DNA of 31,490 nt from positions 46,415 through 77,904 of IMG/VR virus record IMGVR_UViG_3300035663_000007, one strand, 5' to 3'. The translations under genes and the position numbers were made by a program. Of this stretch, positions 3,335 to 31,147 are shown piece by piece (positions within the stretch are counted from its first letter, which is position 1; the number at the start of each line of letters is the position of its first letter). Source of the stretch: a virus. Under the pieces are notes generated by a model. The model was not told the origin of the DNA. It ran no database searches and was given only the letters and a program-made list of their open reading frames with translations.

Positions 3335-6300
3335 ATGACAGTTATTGGATCGGTTGAATTTGAAGCGTCGTTAAGTCTTGACAAGTTTAATCGCGATATT
3401 AATAATTTAATTGCCAAAAATAAAGGGTTAATAATTCCCGTCAATGCTGTCCTGAATTTTGACGCTAAAAATCAAATTACAAAAATAGGACTTCCCCCTT
3501 TAAAAGTCAAGGTTGACGACAAGGAATTAACCCGACTCAATCAGCACATTGAACTGAAGCGAAAGCATCACAAAGAAGTTCAGCAATATTTTAATAGCAA
3601 TCCTTTGGCTGTTAAGGTTAATAAGCGTGGGATAGACGACTCTATTCAAGCAATTAAGATGCTGAAAGAAGAGATTAAAACAGTAAGAGAGTTATACAAA
3701 TACATTGGGAATACAAATATTACAGGGGGAAGTGTTAAGGGATCTAATTATCGTTCCCCTTCCGGTAGTGGAACTAATTCTAGTTACCCGTCTTCAGTTT
3801 TGCTAACAGAAATAGGAGAGAGTACGCTAACAAAACTTGAGGTGATACTAGGAAAAGCTATTAGAAAAAATTCCCCTGGGGGATTTCTTAAAACAGCGAT
3901 AGGATTTGGATTGGGTGGTTTATTGCTCCCGTTGACAAAAAATATAGGTGTAGGAATTTCTGACGCTTTAACCGAAGTATTTTCAGGGATAATTGGAGAT
4001 TTTGAATTAGTAGGATCTTCTATAGGAAGAGGGATCGGAGAGAATTTTTTACTAATAATAGAAAAAAACCTTTATGAAATCATTAGAGATGCGGGAAAGG
4101 GTTTTTTTGGAGAGGAGCAAGTTAGGGAGAGGCAGTTCGCAGCAAGATCGTCAAGACAGGAAAAAAAAGATTCCATAAAAACAAGGGCATTTAATCAGTC
4201 ACAAAGAGAAACGTCGCCTAATTCTCCTTGGCAAACAAAAATCAATAGTGAGGTTGCTATATTACAGGAGGCAGAAAAAGAAATCCAAAAATACGAGGAA
4301 CAGATATCCGAGAAAGCGAAGTCCCTTTTCAATGCTTTTAAAGGGGATAAAATAGAAGAAGAGTTGAAAGAAATAGAGGAAAAATCCAAAGGCATTGAGG
4401 AGAAGCTATTAAAAAACCTGGAAGAAAGGGGAAATTTAAAACCGGACGATACTTCAGGGTTGTCTAAAAGTCTTGCTGAGAACAAATCCTTGTCTGACTC
4501 TCTTGATAAATTGGCGAGAAGGGCAAGCCTTTTGAAAAAAAGACACAAAGAAACAAGTGAGTCTGTAGAGAACGCCATAAGAGAGCAGGTAAGGCATTTA
4601 GAACAACTAAAAGCTAGATTTAAAGATCAGGCGTTATTGCTATTACAAGCTAGTGATACAATGCAAAACGCCTACGCAAACGTTGTAAAACTTCGGAATT
4701 CAGGAAATAAAACAGAGAAAGAAAAAACCGGAAACTCTCAAGTTTTTGAAACGAAAGCCCAAAGAAATTTATTTTCTCTGATTCAAATAATAGCTCAACA
4801 GACAGGGTTAAAAACCCCATTAAAATCGGAAACTCCAAAGATTATTCCGATGTCAGAAAATGACATGAGAAGCGGGGCATATTCCCCTGATGATAACTTT
4901 ATTCGACTTAGTGAGGAAGTCATAAAAGCTTTTGATTCCATAGACCTAGAAGGACTTCTGAGTTTATCAGAAGAAAAATTGAATATTGTTGTCCATGAGC
5001 TTATCCATGCTTTTCAATATAATTTTGGGAAAGAAGGGGCTTCTTCTTCTAGTACAAAAGAATTGATGACGATTGAAGACGCAAAAGATAATCTTAGTGA
5101 AGAACAATTACGAAAAATAAATAGAGGAGTTTCAATTTCTGTTAGGAGTTATCAAAATAGTGAAATAAGAGAGAAGGGCAAATCTCCGTCTATTGAAGAA
5201 TTAGAGAAAGTCAAAAGACAGGAGATGGACGCTTATATTCGTGCTGAGTTATTGACTCGAAAAGTTTTAGATCAGATGACAAAGAAAAGGCAGCAAATAC
5301 AAATAGAAAATCAGACTGGCTTTCGAGGGGGGAGAATACCTGATTTTCAGAGCAATCCAGTAAAATCTGTAGCCGAACTAATAAACTTATCCAGTCAAGA
5401 TTTTTTAACGAAAATTGAAGCTCTTTCAGATGAAGAATTGAGCCAGCTTTCAGACGAATTTATTGCTTTAATTGGTGTTGTGAAACAATTTCAGGAAAAC
5501 TTTACATCATCATCGAATAGGTTGACTAAAATAAAAAATGTATTAGAAAACACAGATCTTGAATCGACAGATATAGAGCAGTTAGGAAAGTTGTCTAAAT
5601 TTGCCCAAATTGCATCTAATGACTTAGCCTCAATCCCAAGTGATCTGACCGAATTATCAAATGCTTTGTCAGAACTTATTAAAACAATAGAAGACCCAAA
5701 GATCAAGGCAATTGTTAGTACGTTTTTAAAAAGAATAGATAAATCTCAAGGTACTTTATCTACTGTTTTGAAAATACAGTCCGCCCCATTAGAAGAAGGT
5801 GGTGTAGTTCGCGCAAATCCAAGAGAGGCAAGTGACGCAGCGTTAAACCTCTTGTCTGATGCAATACAAATTACAGAATCACAAAACAAACAAGAGGAAG
5901 CGATTATAGATGCAAGGATAAAATATTTACAAGAAGTAATAAAAGTAGAAAAAGAACAGGGGCGTGTTGCTGTTGACTCACAAAAAAAATTAAATGCACT
6001 CATTTTAAAAAAACAGGAAATAGAATCAAAAAAACCGAAAAAACAGGGCGTTGATGACACTCCTATAAAGGGGTCTGTAGAACCTCCTGTAGTCAATCAA
6101 AGTGAACCTATTATAGAACCTATTGTAAAGCCTATTATAGAACCTGTGATAGAACCTGTGATAGAACCTATTATAGAACCTATTATAGAACCTGTGATAG
6201 AACCTATTATAGAGCTAGTAGATATTCCTTTCTCAGAAAAAGATAACGGGGAAGATTATGAATTAGATATAGAAGAGATACAAAGTATTGCTCACGATCT

Positions 6301-9300
6301 AAAGACTTTTTTTAAAAAAGACTCGTTAATAGAAACACTTAAAAATATCGGGGAATCACCCACTGGTAAAACTTCGGAAGAAATTTCTTTTCAGTTAGCA
6401 AAAACGGCGAAAAAAACCGCAATTCAGGAAGCTTATTATACATCTGGATCGAGCGGGTTAACTTCTGTTGGGAAAAAGAAAGAATCTGATCTAACAAAAG
6501 AACGGCTACTAGAAAAAAGTGGTTTTAAATTACTTAAGGAAATATATAAAAAAGCTCAAGAAGGGATTAGTCAAAAGCAAAAAGAAATAAATAATTTAAT
6601 AAAAGGGTTAAAAGATATTTCAGGTGAAAAAGAATTGTCGAATGCTTTGACTGATATAAAAGTCAAATCCTATGATGTTTTGGATGCCATTTTTGATGCT
6701 GTAACTCAACTTGAAAACATAAAAGAAGAGTATAGCATTCCTCAATCAATAGGGCAAAATATTCAGGGGATGATATCAGCATTGAAGGCTTATGGAGAAA
6801 GAGCGGACTCTATTGCTGAAAACCTCACAAAAGAAGAAGCCAAGCTAGGGAAGGCAGAAAACATAGAGCTACCCGACTTAAAAATTCCAATGCCTCAACT
6901 ACAGATTCCCGAAAAAATGCAAGTTCAGTCAGGACAACAGGCTTTGTTGGGGATTGGAGCATTGGGGGTTGGCGTGTTTGGAACCCAAGGGGGTGCAATG
7001 GCATCAACTGGTGGCTTGGCTGCTGGATCTGTTGCGGCCAGTCCTATAGCTGTTCCCGTTGTTTTAACTCTTGCCGCAGGGGCTGGGGCTATTGCAGTAA
7101 GTAAAGCTGTCCAACCCTTCCTAGAAAGAAATGCCCCTGAGATTGCAAAAGTTTTATATTTTGACATAGGGAAAGCTATTAAAGGTTTTGGGGTAAAGGT
7201 TAAAAACCTTTTAGGACAAAAAACACCCGCAGTGCTAACACCCACTACACCAGATCCTAGTACATCAAAAACACCCCCTTTTGATTTAGTAGACATAGAG
7301 AATGATATTAACAAAAAAGAGGCTGATTTTTTCAAGGACGCGATAGAAGAAGGTGAAGATTTTAAAGATCTTCTCATAAAAATTAGAAGCAACATAGAGA
7401 GTCTAATAGACGGAGGATCAATAGATCCATCTGTTTTAATTGCTTTAAATTCTATAGAGGAAAACATTGAAAAAATAAATGCCATAGGGTCTGATCCTTT
7501 TGAGTTTGAGGGGATATTAGGACTTGATGGAGCTACAGAGGGTTTGGATTCTATCTCAGAAGCGTTAGTGGAAATTGCTGCAAATCTCCCCCCTGATGCA
7601 GAAAAAGCACAAGAAGCTGTCGCAAGAATGTTGGAGTCAGTTGGAAAACTAGAAAACGTTGAATCTGGATTAGATCGTCAAGAAACCAGATCATCTTCTC
7701 CTTTGAAAAGATTTATAGACGAAATCAAAAGTCTTTCGGATATTAGTAATAAAAAAGATCAGCCATTCTTGTCTTTACTTGTCAAGTTTAGGAGGGCTTT
7801 TGTTAGTTTTAATACATTAGATTTTTTTAAAAACCAATTTCAAAATATTGCTTCAGGGACTTTTGAAGTTACAAAACGCTTTCAAGTATTAGAAAACACC
7901 ATTAACTTTTTGTCAGGAGGAACAAAAGCAGGTGCAAAACAAATCGCATTCTTAAGAAGTGAAATTGAACGCACATCTTCAGCTATAGAGCCAGCCCTAC
8001 AAAGTTATAAAAAATTAGCAGCCAGCACCCGAAACACTCCGATGGAAGGGAAGATAACAAATCAATTAATGTCTGGACTAATGCAAGCTGGGACGGTATT
8101 TGGATTAACGGGAGAAGAATTAGAAGGCTCTATCCTTGCAATTTCTCAAATAGCAGGGAAAGGTTGTCACGGGAAAGGTTCGCTAATTAGAATGGCTGAT
8201 GGCTCTACTAAAAAAGTAGAAAACATTAAAGTGGGGGATTATTTGATGGGAGTCGATAAAACCCCTCGAAAAGTTTTAATGTTGGCACATGGCACAGAAG
8301 AATTATGGAATATCAAGCCCAAACATGGAGACTCATTTGTCGTTAACCGCAGTCACAAGATGAGACTCTTTGACGAGAACGGCGTTAAAAACACTGTTAA
8401 TTTATTTGATTACATTGAGCTAAGTCCTAAAGAAAAAGCAAACTATAAATTAATTAACGAACATTGGAATATAGAAGAATTCACGATTGAAAGGTTAAAC
8501 GTTGGGGAGTTTTTCGGGTTTTTTATTAGTGGAGACCATCTCTATTTAGATGCTCAGGGATACGAGCATCACAACACTGTGAGCATGGAGGAACTCAGAG
8601 GGCAGTTGGCCGAAAGAATTCCGGGTGCCTTCCAAATTGCAGCGAGATCCATGAACCTTACGGAGCAAGAACTATTTAAACTTATTGCGACTGGACAACT
8701 TGCTGCTACGGATTTTCTTCCTAAATTTGCCAATCAATTATCTTCAGAAACAGCAGATGGTGTAGCAGGAGCTTCCAATACCGCCCAATCTTCCTTAACC
8801 CGATTAAAAACCGCTATCACAGAAATACAGGTTGCTGCTGGGAAAGAGTTTCAAGGAATCCTGATCACAGGGATGAATGTATTGAGCGGGGTCATAAAAG
8901 GAGTTACTCAATACGCAGGAACATTCTCACAAATTATTCAGACTGCTACTGCTGTGGCATTGGGCAGGTTTTTACCTTCTGTTGTTAGATTAGTAAAAGG
9001 GTTATGGGATATCCACGCAGTATCTTTTACCGTCACAAAAGCTGTAAGGGGTTTAAGATACGCTATCAACAACTTCATAGTCCCTTCTGTAGCTAAATTC
9101 GCTACAGTCACAGCAGTTGTCTGGTTAACAATCGAGGCATTTAAAATATTAGCTGATGTCTGGGATACCTTTTTCTCCAAAACAACGGTACAAACTTGGT
9201 CAGAATCCCTAATCAAAAACCTCCAAAAATCAAGACAAGAGGTTAAGGATTTAGTTAAAGAACTTAATAAAGGAAAAGCTACACCCGCTCCTGGAGGGAA

Positions 9301-12300
9301 GCCAGAAACAGAATACTCGATAACTAAAAAGCGAATTGCTGACGAGAGAAAAAGCGAAAATGCTTTACAAAAAATAAATAGATTTGCGAACCCGTTAAAC
9401 GCTCTTAATGCTATTAATCCGTTTGCTGCAACAGAAAATGCTCAAGACAAAGAACTTAGAGACAGTCTAAAGCAGACTGTTGTTGACGCTAGACAGGTTA
9501 AACAACTCCAACAAAGCAGAGCGTCGGGAGCTTTGAAAGAGCTCTTTGATTATATTGATCCAGCTAAAAGCAAAGACAATATTACCAGAATTAAAGAATT
9601 AAATGCTCAAGTTGAAATACTACGGCAAAAATCTAGCTTAACCAAAGACCCAAAATCGCAATCACAAATAAATGATCAAATAGTGCAAATTCGGAAATTA
9701 AGAGATACGCTAGGGCAACCGTTATCTGATGGTTTAATTAATGTAAATATAGAATTAGAAAACTATCAGAAATTAGCCAAGGAAACTAACGATAGCAAGT
9801 TAAGAGCAGAAGCCCTCGCTACTATTGAAGTATTGAAAGCCTACAAGATTGAACTTCAAAATATCGAGAGGCAAACCGGAGCGCAAACAACTTTATCCGA
9901 GCTAATGAAGGTATTGGCTAATATTAGAGTTGAGATGGAAATGTTCAATCGTGTCGCCTCTGAATTGGCAGATAAGAATCTTCGAGCGATCGCTGAAACA
10001 GAATTTAAAGGTTTTACCAAGGATGTTTTTGCCGCAAGTTCTGCAAGTTTAAAACGATCTGAGAATGCTTTGGAATTAGTGAACAATAAAATAAACATCT
10101 CCAAAAATGCAATCAAAGGACTTAAAGAGCTATTACAAGACCCATTAATGTCGCAATACGCGGCGAATTATGGCGGTGACAGTTTAGAGAGGTTAAAGAT
10201 TGAGTTAGAGGGTGTTGATGAAGCTGATACACAGCGACGCAAGGCGTTAGAGGCCTTGATTTTGCTACGGGAACAAGAGTCAAGTTTGATTGGTTTGCAG
10301 CGAGAGGAAGCCGAAGCTACTCTGGCATTAGAAAAAGAAAAGTCTCAAACGTTATTGAGTCGATTTGATTACTACAAAGCCGAAGCTCAGGGAAAAGTTC
10401 AGGTTGGGGAATCTCGGAGCTTACTAGGAGTTGCCAAGGGTCAATTATCGGGACAAATTAAGCCCTACGAAGTTGACGTAGCAAAAGGAAAAATATCTTT
10501 AGATACTGCAAAACAGAATGAACAAATTGCCAAAATATCTTTAGAAACCTTGCAAGGATATTACCGCAAAGGGTTGATATCTGCTGAGGAATTCGCAACC
10601 CGCCGCCGTGATTTGGAACTTCAATCTGTACAGGCCGTTCAACAGGTAGCCGAACAGGAGTTACAGTTAAGACAAGCCGTTCAACAGCTTCGCCTTGATT
10701 TATTAGACAGAGAAAATCAAAAAATTGAGCATCAACTCAAGCTCAGGGAATCCCTAGCTCAAATTAATCAGAAAAATAGCCAGATTCAAAGGGAAGTCGT
10801 ATTAGATACTCGGACTAGATCCGGTGAAGATGCCCAGACTCAAACCACTCGCCAAACAGAGGATGAAACACTTGCTGTTCAATTCCAGACCAGTACAGCC
10901 TATGAGCAGGAATTACAGCGTCGTTTATCTATTCTGCAATCTCATTATGCTAAGCGTGAAATAACCCAACGGGAATATGAAGACCGCTCTCGGCAGATTG
11001 AACAGGATATAACCTCAACTACACTCCAATTAAAGGACTATGAGCTACAGCAACACCAACGAATCAACCAACGGACTATCGAAGACAGAGATAGAATGTA
11101 CAGCCGGATGGTTGAAGATTTTGAACGGGCAACCAAGAAACAAGAAAACATTCTCCAATTAAGTGCTATTCGTCAAGAGCAAATTGTTAGACAAAAACAG
11201 TTAGGGCAAATTGATTTAATTGGAAGTCAAAGAGCCGAGCAGCAATCAGCGATCGCACTCACTCAAATACAAGGAGATCAAGCTAAAAAGCAACTCAAGG
11301 AAACATTAACCCAGATTAAACAAGTTGCCAAACTCCGTCAACAGAACGCCCTAACCGAGCGAGAAGCAGAGGAAAGAACGGCGGATCTAACCATAAAAGC
11401 TGAACAGTTAAAACTTGATTTAATTAATAAACAAATTGAGAAGGTTAAGCAATTAAAAGACCTCAAAATTTTAGCTCTTGATGATGAATCATCTCGAATT
11501 GATCTCATTTTCCAGCAACAGGAAATGGGATATTCCTACGGGTTAGAAAAACGCAAGCAAATAGTTGAGAGTTTAGACCGAGAGAAAACTGTGATGGAGG
11601 CTCAGGTCAAATTACAGCAGTCGTTATTCAAAGGTGAAGAACAGAGAAGACAAGCCGCGCTTGATCGATCTCGTAGTGCCGAGGATTTATTGGGGCGGTT
11701 GCCAGACTTGCAGAAACGGGCTGCGGACAATTCCATTAATTTTGCTGAATACAAAGGAACTCGTTACCTGATGGATCTAATTCGGAAAATGGCGGGCGCG
11801 GGGTCTGGCAGCACATTCTTATCCGAGTCTGATATTCGTGATTTGCGGACTAAACAATTCAACCAATCAGCTTTAGAGGAAAAGAAACTTTTAGAGATGA
11901 AAACTCGGCAATTGGAGCAACAGCAAAAGATTCAAAATGCTCAAATGCAATTGCAAAAAGTGATCAACAAACTCACAGCCGAGAATGCCATTATGGAGGC
12001 GAGTATTAGCTTGAACAAGGCACGACAAGCCGAATTACAGGCTAAAATTGCACTGGAAAAAGCTAATGTCAATGGCGACCCAAGGGAGATTCAAAACGCA
12101 CAACAGGCTTACGAATTGACCAAACAGGGGACTCAGTTAAGTCAACAACAGTTAGGGATTGCTGTTGATAAGTTGACGGTATCCAATCAGATTGCAGGGA
12201 TTGATCAACAGGCTTTGGCATCTGACCAGAATAATGAAAGGTTTGCATTGCAAGAAGCAAACCGGAAGGCGTTGCAGGACACGGCGCTAAGAGGAGGTGA

Positions 12301-12568
12301 GTTGGCATCTCAAGGGGCTATAAACGTCGATCAGATAATTCAGGTAGATATGTCTTCTATCAAATTTGATTTATCCCCAATCACTCCGATGGTAGACCTA
12401 ACTTCTCAAATCAATACCAAACTGGACTCGCTCCTTACTGCAATCGAGGGACTGATCAACAAACCGACCGCCCCAAATGTGGAGAATTTAACCGTTGTAT
12501 CCAGTGACCCAACAGGTGATAGTCGTCAAGTTTTGGCTGACTGGACACGGGCTAAAAATATGTATTAG
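3335..12568 (+). CDS. Tape measure protein with metallopeptidase-like domain and mini-intein
   Basis: RBS AGGAG upstream; TMP-like N-terminus (MTVIGSVEFEASLSLDKF); tape-measure motif AISQIAGKG/TVSMEELRGQLAERIPGA split by an intein; long Q/E/K/L coiled-coil C-terminus; hydrophobic segments. Confidence 0.9.
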   Translation: MTVIGSVEFEASLSLDKFNRDINNLIAKNKGLIIPVNAVLNFDAKNQITKIGLPPLKVKVDDKELTRLNQHIELKRKHHKEVQQYFNSNPLAVKVNKRGIDDSIQAIKMLKEEIKTVRELYKYIGNTNITGGSVKGSNYRSPSGSGTNSSYPSSVLLTEIGESTLTKLEVILGKAIRKNSPGGFLKTAIGFGLGGLLLPLTKNIGVGISDALTEVFSGIIGDFELVGSSIGRGIGENFLLIIEKNLYEIIRDAGKGFFGEEQVRERQFAARSSRQEKKDSIKTRAFNQSQRETSPNSPWQTKINSEVAILQEAEKEIQKYEEQISEKAKSLFNAFKGDKIEEELKEIEEKSKGIEEKLLKNLEERGNLKPDDTSGLSKSLAENKSLSDSLDKLARRASLLKKRHKETSESVENAIREQVRHLEQLKARFKDQALLLLQASDTMQNAYANVVKLRNSGNKTEKEKTGNSQVFETKAQRNLFSLIQIIAQQTGLKTPLKSETPKIIPMSENDMRSGAYSPDDNFIRLSEEVIKAFDSIDLEGLLSLSEEKLNIVVHELIHAFQYNFGKEGASSSSTKELMTIEDAKDNLSEEQLRKINRGVSISVRSYQNSEIREKGKSPSIEELEKVKRQEMDAYIRAELLTRKVLDQMTKKRQQIQIENQTGFRGGRIPDFQSNPVKSVAELINLSSQDFLTKIEALSDEELSQLSDEFIALIGVVKQFQENFTSSSNRLTKIKNVLENTDLESTDIEQLGKLSKFAQIASNDLASIPSDLTELSNALSELIKTIEDPKIKAIVSTFLKRIDKSQGTLSTVLKIQSAPLEEGGVVRANPREASDAALNLLSDAIQITESQNKQEEAIIDARIKYLQEVIKVEKEQGRVAVDSQKKLNALILKKQEIESKKPKKQGVDDTPIKGSVEPPVVNQSEPIIEPIVKPIIEPVIEPVIEPIIEPIIEPVIEPIIELVDIPFSEKDNGEDYELDIEEIQSIAHDLKTFFKKDSLIETLKNIGESPTGKTSEEISFQLAKTAKKTAIQEAYYTSGSSGLTSVGKKKESDLTKERLLEKSGFKLLKEIYKKAQEGISQKQKEINNLIKGLKDISGEKELSNALTDIKVKSYDVLDAIFDAVTQLENIKEEYSIPQSIGQNIQGMISALKAYGERADSIAENLTKEEAKLGKAENIELPDLKIPMPQLQIPEKMQVQSGQQALLGIGALGVGVFGTQGGAMASTGGLAAGSVAASPIAVPVVLTLAAGAGAIAVSKAVQPFLERNAPEIAKVLYFDIGKAIKGFGVKVKNLLGQKTPAVLTPTTPDPSTSKTPPFDLVDIENDINKKEADFFKDAIEEGEDFKDLLIKIRSNIESLIDGGSIDPSVLIALNSIEENIEKINAIGSDPFEFEGILGLDGATEGLDSISEALVEIAANLPPDAEKAQEAVARMLESVGKLENVESGLDRQETRSSSPLKRFIDEIKSLSDISNKKDQPFLSLLVKFRRAFVSFNTLDFFKNQFQNIASGTFEVTKRFQVLENTINFLSGGTKAGAKQIAFLRSEIERTSSAIEPALQSYKKLAASTRNTPMEGKITNQLMSGLMQAGTVFGLTGEELEGSILAISQIAGKGCHGKGSLIRMADGSTKKVENIKVGDYLMGVDKTPRKVLMLAHGTEELWNIKPKHGDSFVVNRSHKMRLFDENGVKNTVNLFDYIELSPKEKANYKLINEHWNIEEFTIERLNVGEFFGFFISGDHLYLDAQGYEHHNTVSMEELRGQLAERIPGAFQIAARSMNLTEQELFKLIATGQLAATDFLPKFANQLSSETADGVAGASNTAQSSLTRLKTAITEIQVAAGKEFQGILITGMNVLSGVIKGVTQYAGTFSQIIQTATAVALGRFLPSVVRLVKGLWDIHAVSFTVTKAVRGLRYAINNFIVPSVAKFATVTAVVWLTIEAFKILADVWDTFFSKTTVQTWSESLIKNLQKSRQEVKDLVKELNKGKATPAPGGKPETEYSITKKRIADERKSENALQKINRFANPLNALNAINPFAATENAQDKELRDSLKQTVVDARQVKQLQQSRASGALKELFDYIDPAKSKDNITRIKELNAQVEILRQKSSLTKDPKSQSQINDQIVQIRKLRDTLGQPLSDGLINVNIELENYQKLAKETNDSKLRAEALATIEVLKAYKIELQNIERQTGAQTTLSELMKVLANIRVEMEMFNRVASELADKNLRAIAETEFKGFTKDVFAASSASLKRSENALELVNNKINISKNAIKGLKELLQDPLMSQYAANYGGDSLERLKIELEGVDEADTQRRKALEALILLREQESSLIGLQREEAEATLALEKEKSQTLLSRFDYYKAEAQGKVQVGESRSLLGVAKGQLSGQIKPYEVDVAKGKISLDTAKQNEQIAKISLETLQGYYRKGLISAEEFATRRRDLELQSVQAVQQVAEQELQLRQAVQQLRLDLLDRENQKIEHQLKLRESLAQINQKNSQIQREVVLDTRTRSGEDAQTQTTRQTEDETLAVQFQTSTAYEQELQRRLSILQSHYAKREITQREYEDRSRQIEQDITSTTLQLKDYELQQHQRINQRTIEDRDRMYSRMVEDFERATKKQENILQLSAIRQEQIVRQKQLGQIDLIGSQRAEQQSAIALTQIQGDQAKKQLKETLTQIKQVAKLRQQNALTEREAEERTADLTIKAEQLKLDLINKQIEKVKQLKDLKILALDDESSRIDLIFQQQEMGYSYGLEKRKQIVESLDREKTVMEAQVKLQQSLFKGEEQRRQAALDRSRSAEDLLGRLPDLQKRAADNSINFAEYKGTRYLMDLIRKMAGAGSGSTFLSESDIRDLRTKQFNQSALEEKKLLEMKTRQLEQQQKIQNAQMQLQKVINKLTAENAIMEASISLNKARQAELQAKIALEKANVNGDPREIQNAQQAYELTKQGTQLSQQQLGIAVDKLTVSNQIAGIDQQALASDQNNERFALQEANRKALQDTALRGGELASQGAINVDQIIQVDMSSIKFDLSPITPMVDLTSQINTKLDSLLTAIEGLINKPTAPNVENLTVVSSDPTGDSRQVLADWTRAKNMY
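4830..5280 (+). other. Zincin-like metallopeptidase domain within the TMP (boundaries approximate)
   Basis: GAYSPDDNFIRL strand motif, VVHELIHAFQ (HExxH at 4994-5008), downstream EMDAY glutamate helix. Confidence 0.7.
6104..6211 (+). repeat. In-frame 12-bp tandem repeat, 9 units, encoding (E/K)P(I/V)(I/V)
   Basis: GAACCTATTATA / GAACCTGTGATA units give EPII EPIV KPII EPVI EPVI EPII EPII EPVI EPII. Confidence 0.95.
8165..8575 (+). mobile_element. Mini-intein (137 aa, no homing endonuclease) in the tape measure protein
   Basis: Starts CHGKGSLIRMADGSTKKVENIKVGDYLMG (block A); VNRSH (block B His); ends HHN followed by Thr+1. Removal restores the TMP motif. Confidence 0.92.
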
Positions 12569-25985: not shown

Positions 25986-26633
25986 ATGAGTAAATTAATA
26001 GTTGAGGATGTGAAAGCCCCGTGTCTAACTTTTCCAATTCATGAAACCTTCCAGCAAAGCATTCAAGGTGAGGGTTTTTGGTCTGGGACTCCGTGCGATT
26101 TTATCCGGTTGTACGGGTGTCCGGTGGGATGCTGGTTTTGTGACACTGGATATAGCTCTAAAGAAACAGGTAAACCACCAACAAAAACTTTTAAAACCAT
26201 TGAGGATTTAATCGGGGAATTAAGATCCGAGCATATTGTGATTTCCGGCGGCGAACCTTTCATCCATAAAGAGTTACCTGAGTTGGTCGAGACTCTCAAT
26301 GGTGCTGATAAATTTGTTGCGATTGAGACATCAGGGAGCTTCTTTCAACCCGTTAATGATGCCTGGATAACCCTTTCCCCAAAGGAGCATCTGAACAATC
26401 GTTACCCCGTTTTAAATGAGTTATGGGGTATGGCTAATGAAATTAAGATCGTAATCTCAAAAGGTGACGAAGTTGATTTTTATAGGAGCAAATTAGAGGA
26501 TCTGAATATCCCTATCTATTTGCAGCCCGAGTGGAACTACAAAAAGGGAACTTTACCATTAACATTAGAATTAGTTAAAGAACACGGATATAGGTTGTCA
26601 TTACAAACTCACAAAATCATAGGGGTTCAATAA
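25986..26633 (+). CDS. queE: 7-carboxy-7-deazaguanine synthase (radical SAM)
   Basis: SIQGEG, FIRLYGCPVGCWFCDT (CxxxCxxC), ISGGEP, IETSG, LQP, LSLQTHK. Confidence 0.97.
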   Translation: MSKLIVEDVKAPCLTFPIHETFQQSIQGEGFWSGTPCDFIRLYGCPVGCWFCDTGYSSKETGKPPTKTFKTIEDLIGELRSEHIVISGGEPFIHKELPELVETLNGADKFVAIETSGSFFQPVNDAWITLSPKEHLNNRYPVLNELWGMANEIKIVISKGDEVDFYRSKLEDLNIPIYLQPEWNYKKGTLPLTLELVKEHGYRLSLQTHKIIGVQ

Positions 26634-27043
26634 TGTGGACATTAGTTAAGAAGTTTACCTTTGAAGCCGCGCACAAACTTTCTAACCATCAAGGGAAATG
26701 CTCAAGGTTACATGGTCATAGTTGGGTGGGATTTGTTTATGTGTCAGGTAATGAGCTAAAGCAGTCAGGAAGTGAAACCGGAATGGTGATAGACTATGGG
26801 GAGATAAAAGGAATTATTAATCCCTTGGTTGATGATTATTTGGATCACTATTATCTGAATGAATCAACAGGATTAGAAAACCCTACCAGTGAAGAAATTG
26901 CCAGATGGATTTATGACAAAATCAAAACAAAACTCCCAGGACTTGTCGCAGTTAGGGTTGATGAAACCTGTACAAGCCAATGCTTCTACTCTGAACTTAG
27001 CGATCTCTCAAGTAGAATCAGCAATGGTGTTGTTATGGGGTGA
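26633..27043 (+). CDS. queD: 6-carboxy-5,6,7,8-tetrahydropterin synthase
   Basis: FEAAHKL, CSRLHGHSW, GMVIDY, LDHYYLN, NPTSEEIA, VDET. Confidence 0.97.
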   Translation: MWTLVKKFTFEAAHKLSNHQGKCSRLHGHSWVGFVYVSGNELKQSGSETGMVIDYGEIKGIINPLVDDYLDHYYLNESTGLENPTSEEIARWIYDKIKTKLPGLVAVRVDETCTSQCFYSELSDLSSRISNGVVMG

Positions 27044-27536
27044 ATTGCCAGAAGGGATGAAAGAGACACCTTCAAGGGTTGTCAAATACTGGGTAGAGAT
27101 GTCTCAAGGGATAAATATTAACCCATCGGAATCCCTGAGTAAAGTATTTGATTGTGACTATGATCGAGTCGTAATTGAAAAAGGCATTCCCTTTACTTCA
27201 TTATGTGAGCATCACCTATTGCCGTTCTATGGTGTCGCCCATATTGGCTATATTCCTGATAAAAAAGTTGTCGGGTTGTCAAAACTCCCTAGAGCTTTAG
27301 AAGTTTTGGCAACCCGACCACAAATTCAAGAAAGATTGACCGAACAATTGGGAGATTTGATCTTTAATGTTTTAGAATGCAAGGGCGTTGTAGTCATATT
27401 AGAAGCTGAACACAACTGCATGAGTTGTAGGGGTGTTAAAAAGCATGGGGTTAAGACTATTACAAGCTGTTTAAGAGGTGTTTTTATGACCGATTCATCA
27501 GCTAGGGCAGAAGTATTGAGTTTAATTAAAGGGTGA
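26961..27536 (+). CDS. folE: GTP cyclohydrolase I (start uncertain; frame open from 26889)
   Basis: ETPSRV, SLCEHHLLPFYG, GLSKLPR, RPQIQERLT, HNCMSCRG. Confidence 0.95.
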   Translation: MKPVQANASTLNLAISQVESAMVLLWGELPEGMKETPSRVVKYWVEMSQGININPSESLSKVFDCDYDRVVIEKGIPFTSLCEHHLLPFYGVAHIGYIPDKKVVGLSKLPRALEVLATRPQIQERLTEQLGDLIFNVLECKGVVVILEAEHNCMSCRGVKKHGVKTITSCLRGVFMTDSSARAEVLSLIKG

Positions 27537-27540
27537 CACT

Positions 27541-27738
27541 ATGAAGATACATTTAATTATTCCTATCAAGGGGGGGGGGAGTCAAGTTGACTTTGCATCA
27601 AGTGTTTTATTAGAGCAGGAATACACTAACAATTTATTCTCTTTTGCTTACCAAGAGTATGAAAAATATCAGCATCAATATTGGAATGGATTAATCAATC
27701 ACGTCAACAATACAAGGAATGAAAACAATGGACAATAA
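27541..27738 (+). CDS. Small protein paralogous to the N-terminal repeats of the TGT-like protein; contains a G10 tract
   Basis: MKIHL...NLFSFAYQ...W aligns with RIHLA...HLFSYAYQ...W in 28419..29531. Confidence 0.7.
   Translation: MKIHLIIPIKGGGSQVDFASSVLLEQEYTNNLFSFAYQEYEKYQHQYWNGLINHVNNTRNENNGQ
27570..27579 (+). repeat. G10 homopolymer (candidate slipped-strand phase-variation tract)
   Basis: ATCAAGGGGGGGGGGAGT, in codons 10-13 of the small ORF, in an AT-rich background. Confidence 0.85.
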
Positions 27739-28438
27739 ATGTTTGGTAATTTTAAGTGGTGGTCAAGATAGTACGACTTGCTTGGCGATCGCAAAAAGCA
27801 AATTTAAAGAAGTTCATGCAGTAAGTTTTAATTATGGTCAACGACATTTAACCGAGATAGAGAGCGCGATCAAGATAGCTAAAAAGTTAAACTTAACTTC
27901 CCACGAAATCATTGATCTAGGTCAAGGGATTTTAAAAGGTAGTTCCCCGTTGGTTAGCAACAATGAATTGGGAGTCTATAAAAGCGTTAATGAATTACCT
28001 GGTGGTGTTGAGCCAACTTTTGTTTATGGTAGAAATATTCTATTTTTAACTATTGCAGCTAATCGCGCCGCCGTTATGGGTATTAATGATATCTTTATCG
28101 GTGTCTGTGAAGCTGATTATGCGGGTTATTTTGATTGTAGACTAGATTTTATCAATGTCATGTCGAAAGCGTTAGGAGAGGGTGTTTATGGTTCGCCCGA
28201 TGCTTTTAAAATTCATACTCCGTTAATGAGCTTGACTAAAGCCGAATCGGTATTGTTAGCTAAGGATTTATTGGGTGATGATTTTGATTCAGTGATGGAA
28301 TTGACCCATACTTGTTATGCGGGTGTTAAGGGCGGATGTGGTAAATGTCACGCTTGTTTGATTCGTGACAGAGGTTTTCAAGAGGCGGGAATAGTTGACC
28401 CAATATGGAAGTTTAGAAATGTATCTGTATTTAGTTGA
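27719..28438 (+). CDS. queC: 7-cyano-7-deazaguanine (preQ0) synthase
   Basis: LSGGQDSTT, FNYGQRH, TFVYGRN, YFDCR, TPL..LTKAE, THTCY...CGKCHAC..R. Confidence 0.97.
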   Translation: MKTMDNKCLVILSGGQDSTTCLAIAKSKFKEVHAVSFNYGQRHLTEIESAIKIAKKLNLTSHEIIDLGQGILKGSSPLVSNNELGVYKSVNELPGGVEPTFVYGRNILFLTIAANRAAVMGINDIFIGVCEADYAGYFDCRLDFINVMSKALGEGVYGSPDAFKIHTPLMSLTKAESVLLAKDLLGDDFDSVMELTHTCYAGVKGGCGKCHACLIRDRGFQEAGIVDPIWKFRNVSVFS

Positions 28439-29531
28439 TCACTCATCCGAACGCGGACAACGCAAAGTTCTTACTGAGGAGAGATATATAAGCTATTTGC
28501 AATCCTACGCATTCGTTGGACAAGCGGGTTTTATTGACACTCAAAAATATTGGGAGGAGTTATTGAGGATTCATTTAGCTGATACAACAGCAAAACTAAA
28601 TGGTGACGTTAACATAAAAGAAGTTTTAGTTGATGAAAACAAACCAGAACATCTGTTTAGTTATGCCTACCAAAACCACGAATCTCAATGGTCTGATTCT
28701 TGGAATCAGACCATTGAGAAAAACAAGAATATGAATATACATTTAGCGGGTCATTCTGTTAACGTTGACATGGACAAAGTGGTGAAGCCTTTACATGAAA
28801 ACCATTTAACAACATTTGCAGACCAGAAAGAAGTTAAAGATACTTTGTCCAAAATGGACAAAGTATCTGACTTAAGACCTAGAGTAATAATTGACTCAGG
28901 AGCATTTACAGCTTTTACAACTGGGAAAATAATTAATCCTAAAGATTATGCTACATGGTCTTTAGACTTTCAGAAGCGATGGGAGCATAAAATGAAATCT
29001 CTAAGTTTTATGAACCTGGACGTTATTGGTAATCAAGATGATAGCTGGAAAAATCAATCAATACTTGAATCGTTAGGAATGAAACCGATTCCTATTATTA
29101 CTTTTGGATGTGATAAAAAGCATTTAATTAGAGCATTAGATAACTATGATTATATAGCTTTAGGCGGTTTAGTTCCCCATAGTAGGAATAAAATCAAACT
29201 TCAAAAATGGTTAGATTATTGTTTCAACATAATCATGGGAAGATATAAAGAAACGGGTGTTATGTCAAGGATTCATTTACTCGGTATAACAACTGATTGG
29301 GTACTGAAAAGATATCCCTGCTATAGTTCAGATTCGTCATCATGGGTTGCTTGTTTAAGGTTTGGCGGCGGTGCTGCTGCGGGTTTAGATAAAATACCTA
29401 GATATAAAGAATCAGATGCTGCGCTATCAGCAACAATTCACACCTTAAGATCGGAGGTGGTAAAATATAAAAAGATGGAAACTGAAGCTACAAATTTATG
29501 GAAATCAAGGGGGATAATCTGGGATGACTAA
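28419..29531 (+). CDS. TGT-fold (DpdA/archaeosine-TGT-like) putative DNA base-exchange transglycosylase with N-terminal repeats
   Basis: IIDSGAF, NLDVIG, IALGGLV, IHLLG, SSDSSSW motifs; directly follows queC. ATG at 28419 preferred over the TTG at 28395. Confidence 0.8.
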   Translation: MYLYLVDHSSERGQRKVLTEERYISYLQSYAFVGQAGFIDTQKYWEELLRIHLADTTAKLNGDVNIKEVLVDENKPEHLFSYAYQNHESQWSDSWNQTIEKNKNMNIHLAGHSVNVDMDKVVKPLHENHLTTFADQKEVKDTLSKMDKVSDLRPRVIIDSGAFTAFTTGKIINPKDYATWSLDFQKRWEHKMKSLSFMNLDVIGNQDDSWKNQSILESLGMKPIPIITFGCDKKHLIRALDNYDYIALGGLVPHSRNKIKLQKWLDYCFNIIMGRYKETGVMSRIHLLGITTDWVLKRYPCYSSDSSSWVACLRFGGGAAAGLDKIPRYKESDAALSATIHTLRSEVVKYKKMETEATNLWKSRGIIWDD

Positions 29532-30201
29532 TTACAAAGTTGAAAGAGGGATTTTAATTGATATTATTAATATTGAGCCTAACCCGTGGAATCCCAACAA
29601 AACATCTGAACGTCAACAAGAGGCAATCACAGAATCATTAAATGCCTATGGTCAAATAATTGAATTGTTAGTTAGACCGCATCCAGAGAAAAAGGGTAAA
29701 TATCAGATTATTGATGGGGAGCATAGATTAGTCTCTTTGAGCAGTAAAGAACAAAAGGTATTTGTTAACATTATTCATGGCTTACCCGACGCCGAAGCTA
29801 AAAAACTAACCATTATCTTGAATGAGACTAGGGGGAGTGCTGACAAGATTGAGCTTGCTAAACTATTAGAAGACATCAACAATGACTTAGGAATTGAAAC
29901 AATTATAGGGTTGCCATATAGTTCTAACGAATTGGATGAGTTAATAAAATTAGCTGATATTGATTGGGATAATTTCGCCAAGGGTGATGATAGCGACGAG
30001 TTTGACGAGAACGATCCTACAACTGATCCATCTGAATTGATTACTGTTGTGGCAAAGATATCACCGGACGTGATGGAAAAAGCTCAGGATGTATACAATC
30101 TGGTAAGCGAAGAAATGAAGGGCTTAAACAAGGATAAAGCTATTGCCTGGGGTCAAGTTTTGGAGAGCTTGGTTGTAAACTATTTGGGGTTGTCGGAGTA
30201 A
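29524..30201 (+). CDS. ParB/Srx N-terminal domain protein
   Basis: PNPWNPN, SLNAYGQI..LLVRP, YQIIDGEHR, LNETRG; acidic C-terminal linker. Confidence 0.9.
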   Translation: MTNYKVERGILIDIINIEPNPWNPNKTSERQQEAITESLNAYGQIIELLVRPHPEKKGKYQIIDGEHRLVSLSSKEQKVFVNIIHGLPDAEAKKLTIILNETRGSADKIELAKLLEDINNDLGIETIIGLPYSSNELDELIKLADIDWDNFAKGDDSDEFDENDPTTDPSELITVVAKISPDVMEKAQDVYNLVSEEMKGLNKDKAIAWGQVLESLVVNYLGLSE

Positions 30202-30715: not shown

Positions 30716-31147
30716 TTAATCAGTCCCAAACTTTTCCCTGAGTGCCAACATAGCTTTTTTCTTCTTATGTCTGAGATATGATTCGGCATCGGTCAGGTTC
30801 CGACCTGGATAGATTCTCGGCCTCCCTACGGGCTTGGGGTCTGAGGTCGTGATTTTCTCATGGATTCTCGGTCGCCCCTCTGGTTTGGGATTTGAAATTT
30901 GGGACGCTCCGCAGGGTGTACAGCGCCACTTCTGCCTCCCGTCCGAATGAACCCCGTTTTTTTTCATCTTGTGTCCGCACTTTGGACATGGCGGGTTTTT
31001 CTTGGCTTCATTGGATTTTCGATTCCGCAACCAACAGGGATTGCAGAAATACTTTTGTTTTCCGGTTGGCGTTATCCCAGACTTCCACATCTTCCCACCG
31101 CAAGTTAAGCAGCGCGGGTTGTATTTTTCCGTGTTATCTTTGTCCAT
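30716..31147 (-). CDS. Tandem InsA-like zinc-ribbon protein with GRPR (AT-hook-like) repeats
   Basis: CLTC...GKQKYFCNPC; CPKC...GRQKWRCTPC; two PKPxGRPRI repeats. Confidence 0.75.
   Translation of the reverse strand: MDKDNTEKYNPRCLTCGGKMWKSGITPTGKQKYFCNPCWLRNRKSNEAKKNPPCPKCGHKMKKNGVHSDGRQKWRCTPCGASQISNPKPEGRPRIHEKITTSDPKPVGRPRIYPGRNLTDAESYLRHKKKKAMLALREKFGTD

Follow-up and report, generated by a model that had tools for sequence, protein, structure and literature searches.

Can the catalytic barrel of a phage enzyme be completed by several alternative pieces? This question is raised by a stretch of 31,490 nucleotides (nt) of the virus record IMGVR_UViG_3300035663_000007 (positions 46,415 to 77,904), hereafter the window, which forms the final 31.5 kb of a virus contig of 77,904 nt and whose own positions serve as coordinates below. 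The window contains a gene for a DpdA-like protein of 370 amino acids (aa), whose N-terminal part consists of three tandem modules (M1, M2 and M3), while a fourth module stands alone as a small open reading frame (ORF) upstream. Each unit is almost certainly the first quarter (β1-α1-β2-α2) of the (β/α)8 barrel of phage DpdA, and we incline to the reading that such quarter-barrel cassettes compete with each other, are switched by slippage and recombination, and so vary the motif that is modified. The strongest features of the locus, namely the frame switching at a poly-G run and the shuffling of cassettes, were absent from the earlier note on this DNA. In the following, L### denotes the loci of relatives, P#### the homologous proteins and X## the sequencing runs. 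The module system comprises these features:

27541..27738, + strand: free-standing quarter-barrel module gene, 65 aa (module hidden Markov model, HMM, 30 bits), with its 3' end overlapping the queC start
27570..27579, + strand: run of ten G (G10) within the free module, in its β1-α1 loop; the genome's longest G/C run
28419..28562, + strand: module M1, A-like type, loop DHSSERGQ, ATG start (AlphaFold2 fold)
28553..28557, + strand: GGAGG, Shine-Dalgarno (SD)-like, ahead of TTG 28563 (sequence; anti-SD duplex)
28563..28730, + strand: module M2, B type, loop DTTAKL, candidate internal TTG start (HMM 59 bits)
28731..28868, + strand: module M3, D type, loop GHSV, without Trp, core-proximal, candidate internal ATG (HMM 54 bits)
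28869..29531, + strand: DpdA core, strands β3-β8, with D159 (DSGAF), D201, G249-G250 and D305 (phrog_887, E 3.5e-36)

The repeat unit

The earlier note had placed four copies of one unit in this region and had let each copy inside the gene begin at a potential start codon. The four units are indeed found at these places, i.e., the free ORF at 27541-27738, M1 at ATG 28419, M2 at TTG 28563 and M3 at ATG 28731, and the GGAGG at 28553-28557 ends 5 nt before the TTG, as had been described. The DSGAF motif of the 370-aa protein follows at residue 159 (nt 28893). The proposed repeat alignment also held, with p < 0.05 against shuffled sequences in five of the six pairwise protein comparisons (free/M2 2e-4, free/M3 0.004, M1/M2 0.007, free/M1 0.02, M2/M3 0.03), the remaining pair, M1 and M3, giving a non-significant p of 0.06. 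At the DNA level p = 0.01 was reached in just one of the six pairs; therefore the duplications are old.

A module HMM built from 274 homolog segments, with no free ORFs among them, matches the free ORF with 30 bits (E 2e-8), and gives 40-59 bits to M1-M3, which are themselves in its seed. In terms of the profile groups defined below, M1 resembles the A type, M2 is B and M3 is D. Profile comparison with hhalign connects all types (free versus A 98.8%, free versus B 98.4%, A versus D 90%, B versus D 82%, free versus D 58%), the weakest links being those of the free module with C and D (52-58%). No additional module occurs elsewhere in the 77.9-kb genome. Neither the free ORF nor the region of M1 and M2 is matched in Pfam or PHROGs, a sequence search of solved structures with A3 gave no match at E 1, and the Atlas had no usable match for the free ORF. 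Among longer proteins the free-module profile found two matches, both DpdA arrays, in a weak search with only 7994 candidates scored. The idea that four modules build a barrel of their own was dropped, since module counts vary from 1 to 5.

Fold of the modules and the core

In the AlphaFold2 model of the full 370-aa protein, M1 provides two strands of the barrel and the core six, with M2 and M3 looped out at low confidence. M1 forms a strand at residues 2-6, a helix at 14-20, a second strand at 25-29 and a helix from 36, at a predicted local distance difference test (pLDDT) score of about 90. The best fold matches of this model are arcTGT, DpdA, Cap10 and TGT (Z 17.8-16.1, the first unrelated row having 13.4), among them 1iq8 (Z 17.8, root-mean-square deviation 3.3, 234 aligned) and the bacterial DpdA 7ui4 (Z 16.4, 3.3 Å over 236 residues). 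Consequently, the two strands and two helices of M1, the six strands of the core and the TGT-like matches together identify the unit as β1-α1-β2-α2. The earlier note had taken it for the first βα segment of the barrel; a barrel segment it is, but it spans two βα units rather than one.

The free module is predicted to dock on the core (residues 149-370), with a complex score of 0.88 versus 0.03 for the best of three controls, a docking mark that is reached by 116 of 157 solved pairs and by 2 of 215 mismatched pairs. The contacts agree between runs at 91% or better, the partner pLDDT is at least 79, and residues 29-35 pair with β3 and residues 3-4 with β8. The proposal that modules complete the barrel is thus upheld, as a prediction of the models, for M1 in cis and for the free module in trans, but not for the remaining two: in a model of M2-M3-core both modules remained undocked (pLDDT 38-59 over residues 1-100, strandless there, predicted template modelling score 0.63), and interchangeability is therefore a prediction for just two units out of four. 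The barrel slot can probably be filled by at least two units, and natural proteins whose sole module is of the D type (P0059, P0067, P0186) suggest that D is competent as well.

The pocket and catalytic residues given for the DpdA of phage CAjan are D63, S64, F67, D105, H132, G153-154, F189 and D206 (PMC7544227). D159, S160, F163, D201, G249-250 and D305 match them by motif and are invariant in 78 aligned sequences, with T228 and L288 here corresponding to H132 and F189. The core HMM matches CAjan DpdA at E 3e-39; phrog_887 is the putative library family, without any match in Pfam, and the nearest named Atlas cluster (0.92) carries PF23859 on 29% of its members. The CXC motif is absent from the 370-aa translation, so it has no CXCX2CX22H zinc site. 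All the residues named for CAjan lie in the core; hence a change of base specificity by the modules, which the earlier note had allowed, is unlikely, and the context of the target is the likeliest variable.

The DpdA proteins of CAjan and EC151 have one stretch of about 58 aa with the same plan ahead of DSGAF. Against 21 such canonical N-termini the profile probability is 94.7% for type A, 92.8% for C, 76% for B, 62% for D, 56% for the free module and 13% for E (reversed-alignment controls below 0.4%). The HMM link is weak, with 4.4 bits for EC151 and none for CAjan. CAjan gp36, just upstream of dpdA, was considered as a hidden free module explaining the two CAjan motifs, but it is not one; the match upstream of dpdA in EC151 is the same helical kind of gene. 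Many distant DpdA homologs (L072, L081, L094, L121 and others) begin at β2 (MxVxxLxSYAF) and miss the N-terminal β1-α1. Nicole72 has two dpdA genes (L183 genes 2 and 4), with a possible strand near the C-terminus, and circular permutation may therefore be involved.

Module types and shuffling of arrays

Homologs numbered 259, and the 120 listed ones were examined, from related loci, so that the counts are not independent. Among these 120, the number of modules per protein is 0 in 3, 1 in 26, 2 in 38, 3 in 26, 4 in 21 and 5 in 6; thus the comparison of module number proposed earlier showed that 91 of 120 carry two to five modules of distinct types. The type letters A-H were coined in this analysis from the loop motifs after β1: A d.S.eRGQ, B tdTTArl, C GlPS.N..IQ, D GHsAt and E tTsHE, with F, G and H being rarer. 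There is therefore some circularity in the conservation of the loops by type, although the main groups also emerged from unsupervised clustering. Proteins with a single module exist for each of the types A, C, D and G. Same-type identity is 0.45, compared with 0.29 between types inside one protein, across cores that are only 40-60% identical, and a broad type is repeated in just 3 of 84 multi-module proteins, with copies only 40% identical.

When the arrays were compared on a quick tree of 111 cores, it was found that they change between sister cores. P0011 (ABCD) and P0045 (AE) have identical cores, and sister cores with different arrays include P0001 ABD and P0006 AE, P0003 BCD and P0004 ABC, P0002 ABCD and P0005 ABE, as well as the pairs P0019/P0043, P0037/P0050 and P0015/P0040. 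The 46 architectures counted in the 111 proteins are inflated by unclassified or missed segments and partial proteins. A six-frame scan of 177 sequences placed every module match on the strand of the core, with no cassettes in opposite orientation, unlike an inversion shufflon. Tandem modules started by ATG also occur in distant DpdA proteins, three in L123 (5730-6200, 27% identity) and two in L024 (4885-5140, 41%), where the identities are best-segment values.

In L007, L011, L027, L040, L085, L110, L140 and L151, the dpdA core is present twice in tandem and the two copies differ in their N-terminal modules, which would be another route to the same module diversity. P0104 is 99% identical to M1-M2-M3 and then continues with unrelated sequence in place of the core, which may be a chimera or a real fusion. 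A fragment like the 3' end of folE lies between two free modules in L100 (5050-5150) and L101 (4930-5030), likely a scar of tandem insertion by recombination.

The free module gene and its homopolymer run

Of the G/C runs in the window, only G10 at 27570-27579 has a length of at least 7, and it is also the longest of the whole 77,904-nt genome; four other runs of 7-8 lie outside the window (G000:C1 2847, 19258, 27783 and 38822). The frame of the free gene is open at G7 and G10, and broken at G8, G9 and G11. The same run was found in all four lake sequencing runs, from four studies, with lengths of G9, G9, G8 and G7 and only 0-5 other substitutions in 2351 nt, although the DNA of the window may itself derive from X5; among relatives it is G8 in L003 and G6 in L001. 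Near-identical genomes therefore differ in frame at a coding homopolymer, as at a contingency locus, and the free gene is very probably a slippage-switched protein.

The set of free modules comprises 14 in the window and eight loci, the duplicate contigs L097 and L102 having been dropped; 19 short homologs of the free module also exist. In thirteen of the 14, a stretch of 6-10 G or C lies between start and β2; nine of these modules are out of frame and four in frame, near the one third expected from drift. L006 has three free types, each with its own run. L100 (G7, C9) and L101 (G8, C8) have two free modules each, both OFF in the former and both ON in the latter, and have the same sequence in the 35 codons compared. 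Among the 177 loci scanned, 36 with modules were picked by hand, and in these 19 of 26 G/C runs of at least 7 lie inside modules, which cover 5.7% of the bases (binomial p 1e-18, inflated by related loci). Four G runs outside module matches were considered as hidden modules; the three inspected, in L036, L082 and L112, lie in folE or queE-like genes.

The out-of-frame free modules are not decaying, and purifying selection has been retained. Between the window and L001 (OFF), nonsynonymous differences occur at 1 of 87 sites and synonymous ones at 8 of 18; between L100 and L006, both OFF, the corresponding values are 1/87 and 5/18. A fraction of 0.48-0.72 of the sequence words of 27000-29600 occurs in the RNA runs X15-X18, which is not taken as evidence of expression.

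Internal start codons

Among 173 internal modules the first residue is M in 120, V in 38, L in 13, T in 2 and I in none, whereas position 3 is I in 125. ATG, GTG or TTG stands at 36 of 38 distinct internal junctions, the exceptions being ACG (L017) and a GTT directly after ATG; a looser count gives 47 of 50. For comparison, usage in the cores is 0.23 for GTG and 0.13 for TTG. Codons a single step away, GTG and TTG, could be explained by an inherited old ATG, but the absence of Ile could not. The GGAGG before TTG 28563 forms an anti-SD duplex of -10.2 kcal/mol versus a control median of -2.5; the p of 8e-4 for the junction SD test is inflated by related loci and confounded by the conserved Trp codon. 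The upstream module is frameshifted with the downstream array intact in L007, L014, L015, L017, L101 and L113, and in run X8 (depth 318) M1 is frameshifted at 28484 and the free gene is OFF.

A possible mechanism and its alternatives

What is observed directly is the repeat with its diverse types, their shuffling between sister genomes, the start codons where modules begin, and a run that shifts the frame. A mechanism built on these observations would have one slot per core, for which the modules compete, and a single genome would make mixed enzyme forms. Free modules would be flipped on and off by replication slippage, and recombination at the short β1-coding stretch would add, drop or swap fused modules. 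Internal starts would yield shorter isoforms and could keep the enzyme expressed despite a frameshift in an upstream module. The loops that follow β1 and β2, which are specific to the type, would read the DNA beside the target G, and the choice of module would likely change the guanine contexts that receive preQ0.

In bacterial DpdA, the DNA-binding surface is formed in part by the β1/α1 insertion, while the β2/α2 insertion lies alongside the active site (PMC10164549). The motifs of DpdA differ between the two phages for which they are given, CAjan with GA and GGC and iggy with GA. The benefit would be bet-hedging between restriction enzymes blocked by the modification and defences directed at modified DNA. 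There are grounds for such hedging, because the dPreQ0 modification of DNA blocks restriction enzymes (PMC6884629), but the glycosylase Dag1 attacks dPreQ0 phage, whose escapers lose dpdA and become restriction-sensitive (bioRxiv 2025.10.29.685425). That the type of module changes the motif seems to us somewhat more probable than the contrary. The wider picture of a plug-in enzyme, in which the core would be completed by any competing piece, from a cis array or from mini-genes gated by poly-G/C, with the motif set by each piece, is tentative and falls a little short of an even chance.

Several points weigh against these readings, beginning with the relatedness of the loci and the partly circular typing described above. 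Run lengths were read from contigs, one per sample, the 24 sequencing runs listed all being stored in that form, and reversibility would follow from them only indirectly. The arrays of L123 and L024 have no homopolymer runs, and the L123 case counts against our reading; no free module is present at the module-bearing loci L082, L099, L103, L109 and L112. As for the models, besides the M2-M3-core model that docked neither module, the full-length model may favour M1, since its alignment stacked first modules in the columns of M1, and one of five full-length AlphaFold2 models reached a pLDDT of 79. The free-module complex consists of two pieces of a solved fold class and may pass by likeness. Competence of the B type is unsupported, B being adjacent to the core in 1 of 111 proteins and never a sole module. 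Among the starts, the candidate of M3 has a weak SD (-2.7 kcal/mol), the TTG of M2 reads TTA in run X12, and the internal start of L017 is ACG. Finally, CAjan modifies two motifs (GA and GGC) with a single module, and between CAjan and iggy the module has 46 of 60 residues identical versus 72% overall, so that differences are not concentrated in it.

The last point leads to the alternative that survives best, although we consider it unlikely, in which modules only control dose or ON/OFF state, either by completing or blocking the barrel or through a coupling of translation between the free ORF and queC; this would change the amount of modification and not its site. In its favour, CAjan manages two motifs with one module, the queC start is overlapped by the free ORF here as well as in relatives, the frames that are OFF end after 15-23 aa, and Dag1 selects for loss of modification (bioRxiv 2025.10.29.685425). 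However, queC has its own SD-like site at 27728, the protein sequence downstream of the run is under purifying selection, distinct types persist across the divergent cores, and L006 has three different free types, each with its own run, with L100 and L101 having two.

Slightly less likely again is a silent cassette reservoir, in which only the core-proximal module works and the rest are stored alleles moved in by recombination. This fits the turnover of arrays, which is faster than that of cores, the 5-16 identical bases shared by module starts inside one array, the last position of the D type in 50 of 111 proteins, and the alternative core-proximal module that coexists in run X12, where a minor contig has 120 nt of M3 exchanged for 114 other letters. 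Against it, the upstream modules have kept their frame and each has a start codon of its own, AlphaFold2 favoured the distal M1, and free modules are under protein-level selection with frame switches, which silent donors would not need.

It is improbable that the modules change the kind of substrate, i.e., another base precursor, RNA, or protein as with Cap10. Although Cap10-CdnD (9ntn) ties DpdA in the fold search (Z 16.2 versus 16.4), every pocket or catalytic residue named for CAjan lies after the module (PMC7544227), and the cluster holds the FolE/QueD/QueE/QueC/DpdA set tied to dPreQ0 (PMC6884629). Least probable of all is a non-adaptive origin from duplication debris and assembly error, for which error-prone homopolymers, contigs as the sole data, a stop in the last module of L100 and a frameshift outside any long run in L101 could be cited, since runs keep one position across lineages and kinds of module and show a strong enrichment inside modules, the four sequencing runs differ at the tract with almost no other substitution, and purifying selection, types and start codons are conserved. 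The architecture is, to judge by the sequences, real, conserved and unusual, and its function in specificity is plausible.

Genome setting

The module system lies within a cluster on the + strand in the order queE-like, queD, folE, 65-aa ORF, queC, 370-aa DpdA-like gene and ParB-like gene; that is, folE, queD, queE and queC are clustered with dpdA as in phage DpdA1, according to Pfam and PHROGs matches. The neighbouring genes are:

25986..26633, + strand: queE-like radical SAM gene (Pfam Radical_SAM E 7e-13), named from its cluster context
26633..27043, + strand: queD, PTPS family (PF01242 E 1e-35)
27024..27536, + strand: folE, GTP cyclohydrolase I (PF01227 E 4e-61), start inferred
27719..28438, + strand: queC, preQ0 synthase (PF06508 E 8e-61, phrog_1550), start at 27719 or 27728
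29524..30201, + strand: ParB-like gene (PF02195, phrog_723)

The ParB-like gene is a frequent neighbour of phage dpdA, adjoining it in Mufasa8, Sonali, phiSM and Nicole72. A promoter scan gave no more than chance, 15 versus 14.8. Next to the cluster, a zinc-ribbon-like ORF (30716-31147, - strand) matches phrog_6422, a Lar-like restriction alleviation protein, at E 1e-37.

The host is likely a cyanobacterium, because named homologs come from Chlorogloeopsis and Dolichospermum, a 625-aa protein has 33% identity to the major capsid protein of Cylindrospermopsis phage Cr-LKS4, the sequencing runs that contain the stretch are from lakes or freshwater, and in the 77,904-nt genome CGATCG, which is linked to the cyanobacterial HIP1, is over-represented, with GGCC, GATC, CCGG, AAGCTT and GAATTC being avoided. 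The avoidance is strong, despite the modification cluster, for GGCC (54 versus 264 expected), AAGCTT (4 versus 54), GAATTC, AGATCT, CCATGG and ACCGGT. Elsewhere in the window, a 3077-aa tape-measure-like protein (3335-12568, + strand) carries a Hint domain (PF05203, E 4e-11, about residues 1611-1748) that ends in HHN-T directly ahead of the TMP_3 match; this tail protein probably contains a mini-intein.

Comparison with known systems

In the literature searched, with supplements and most subscription papers outside its coverage, no description of tandem, free or phase-variable DpdA modules was found, and among the features given for the DpdA subfamilies in bioRxiv 2023.04.13.536721 there is no such module. 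Target selection by DpdA is called open in PMC7544227, and this family offers many alleles of a 50-aa piece on near-identical cores. If the proposal is true, a phage population would hedge combinatorially over the restriction sites that are shielded and over its visibility to modified-DNA defences, and the library of types (A-H and others) could serve directly as a code by which the specificity of DpdA is programmed, possibly yielding base-exchange enzymes that can be programmed to label DNA. Should the pieces compete for one slot, they would be natural exchangeable sub-domain parts of a TIM barrel, and a diversity generator for phage DNA modification beyond on/off switching.

The closest relative is phage DpdA1 (CAjan, iggy, 9g, Rosebush; PMC6884629, PMC7544227, PMC10484667), which shares the gene set, the TGT-like barrel, two catalytic Asp motifs and, putatively, phrog_887; motif-specific exchange of G has been shown for CAjan and iggy. 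By fold, residues and cluster the present enzyme belongs here, with preQ0 insertion being putative. However, CAjan, iggy and EC151 have one N-terminal quarter, in contrast to the three fused types and the run-switched free one described above. Bacterial DpdA (7ui4; PMC10164549) has the same fold, its Ins1 and Ins2 lie in the region covered by the modules, and a ParB-like partner is nearby in both; it differs by its CXCX2C zinc motif and one fixed N-terminus, whereas here there is no zinc motif and no dpdC was found.

Homopolymer frameshift switches are likewise known from phage contingency loci, such as the poly-A of T2 agt and the poly-G of Fletchervirus receptor-binding proteins, and T2 agt, a DNA-modification gene between two restriction types, is a precedent for a slippage-switched phage modification gene (bioRxiv 2025.10.21.683753). 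These switch a whole gene, whereas here the run gates one alternative structural piece and leaves the core intact. The shuffling of Type I hsdS and the phase-variable mod genes likewise exchange recognition parts and use repeat-driven switching of a DNA-modifying enzyme, but they involve whole folded domains of bacterial methyltransferases, often by inversion, whereas here a quarter of a catalytic barrel is exchanged in direct orientation and, unlike those pieces, is predicted to act in trans too. Laboratory (β/α)8 fragment complementation and alternate-frame-folding switches have a duplicated segment competing for one slot; those are engineered, and the present locus would be a natural case with many alternatives. 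By analogy, the system would work like a contingency locus combined with specificity-domain shuffling, but without inversion and with the exchanged part inside the catalytic fold.

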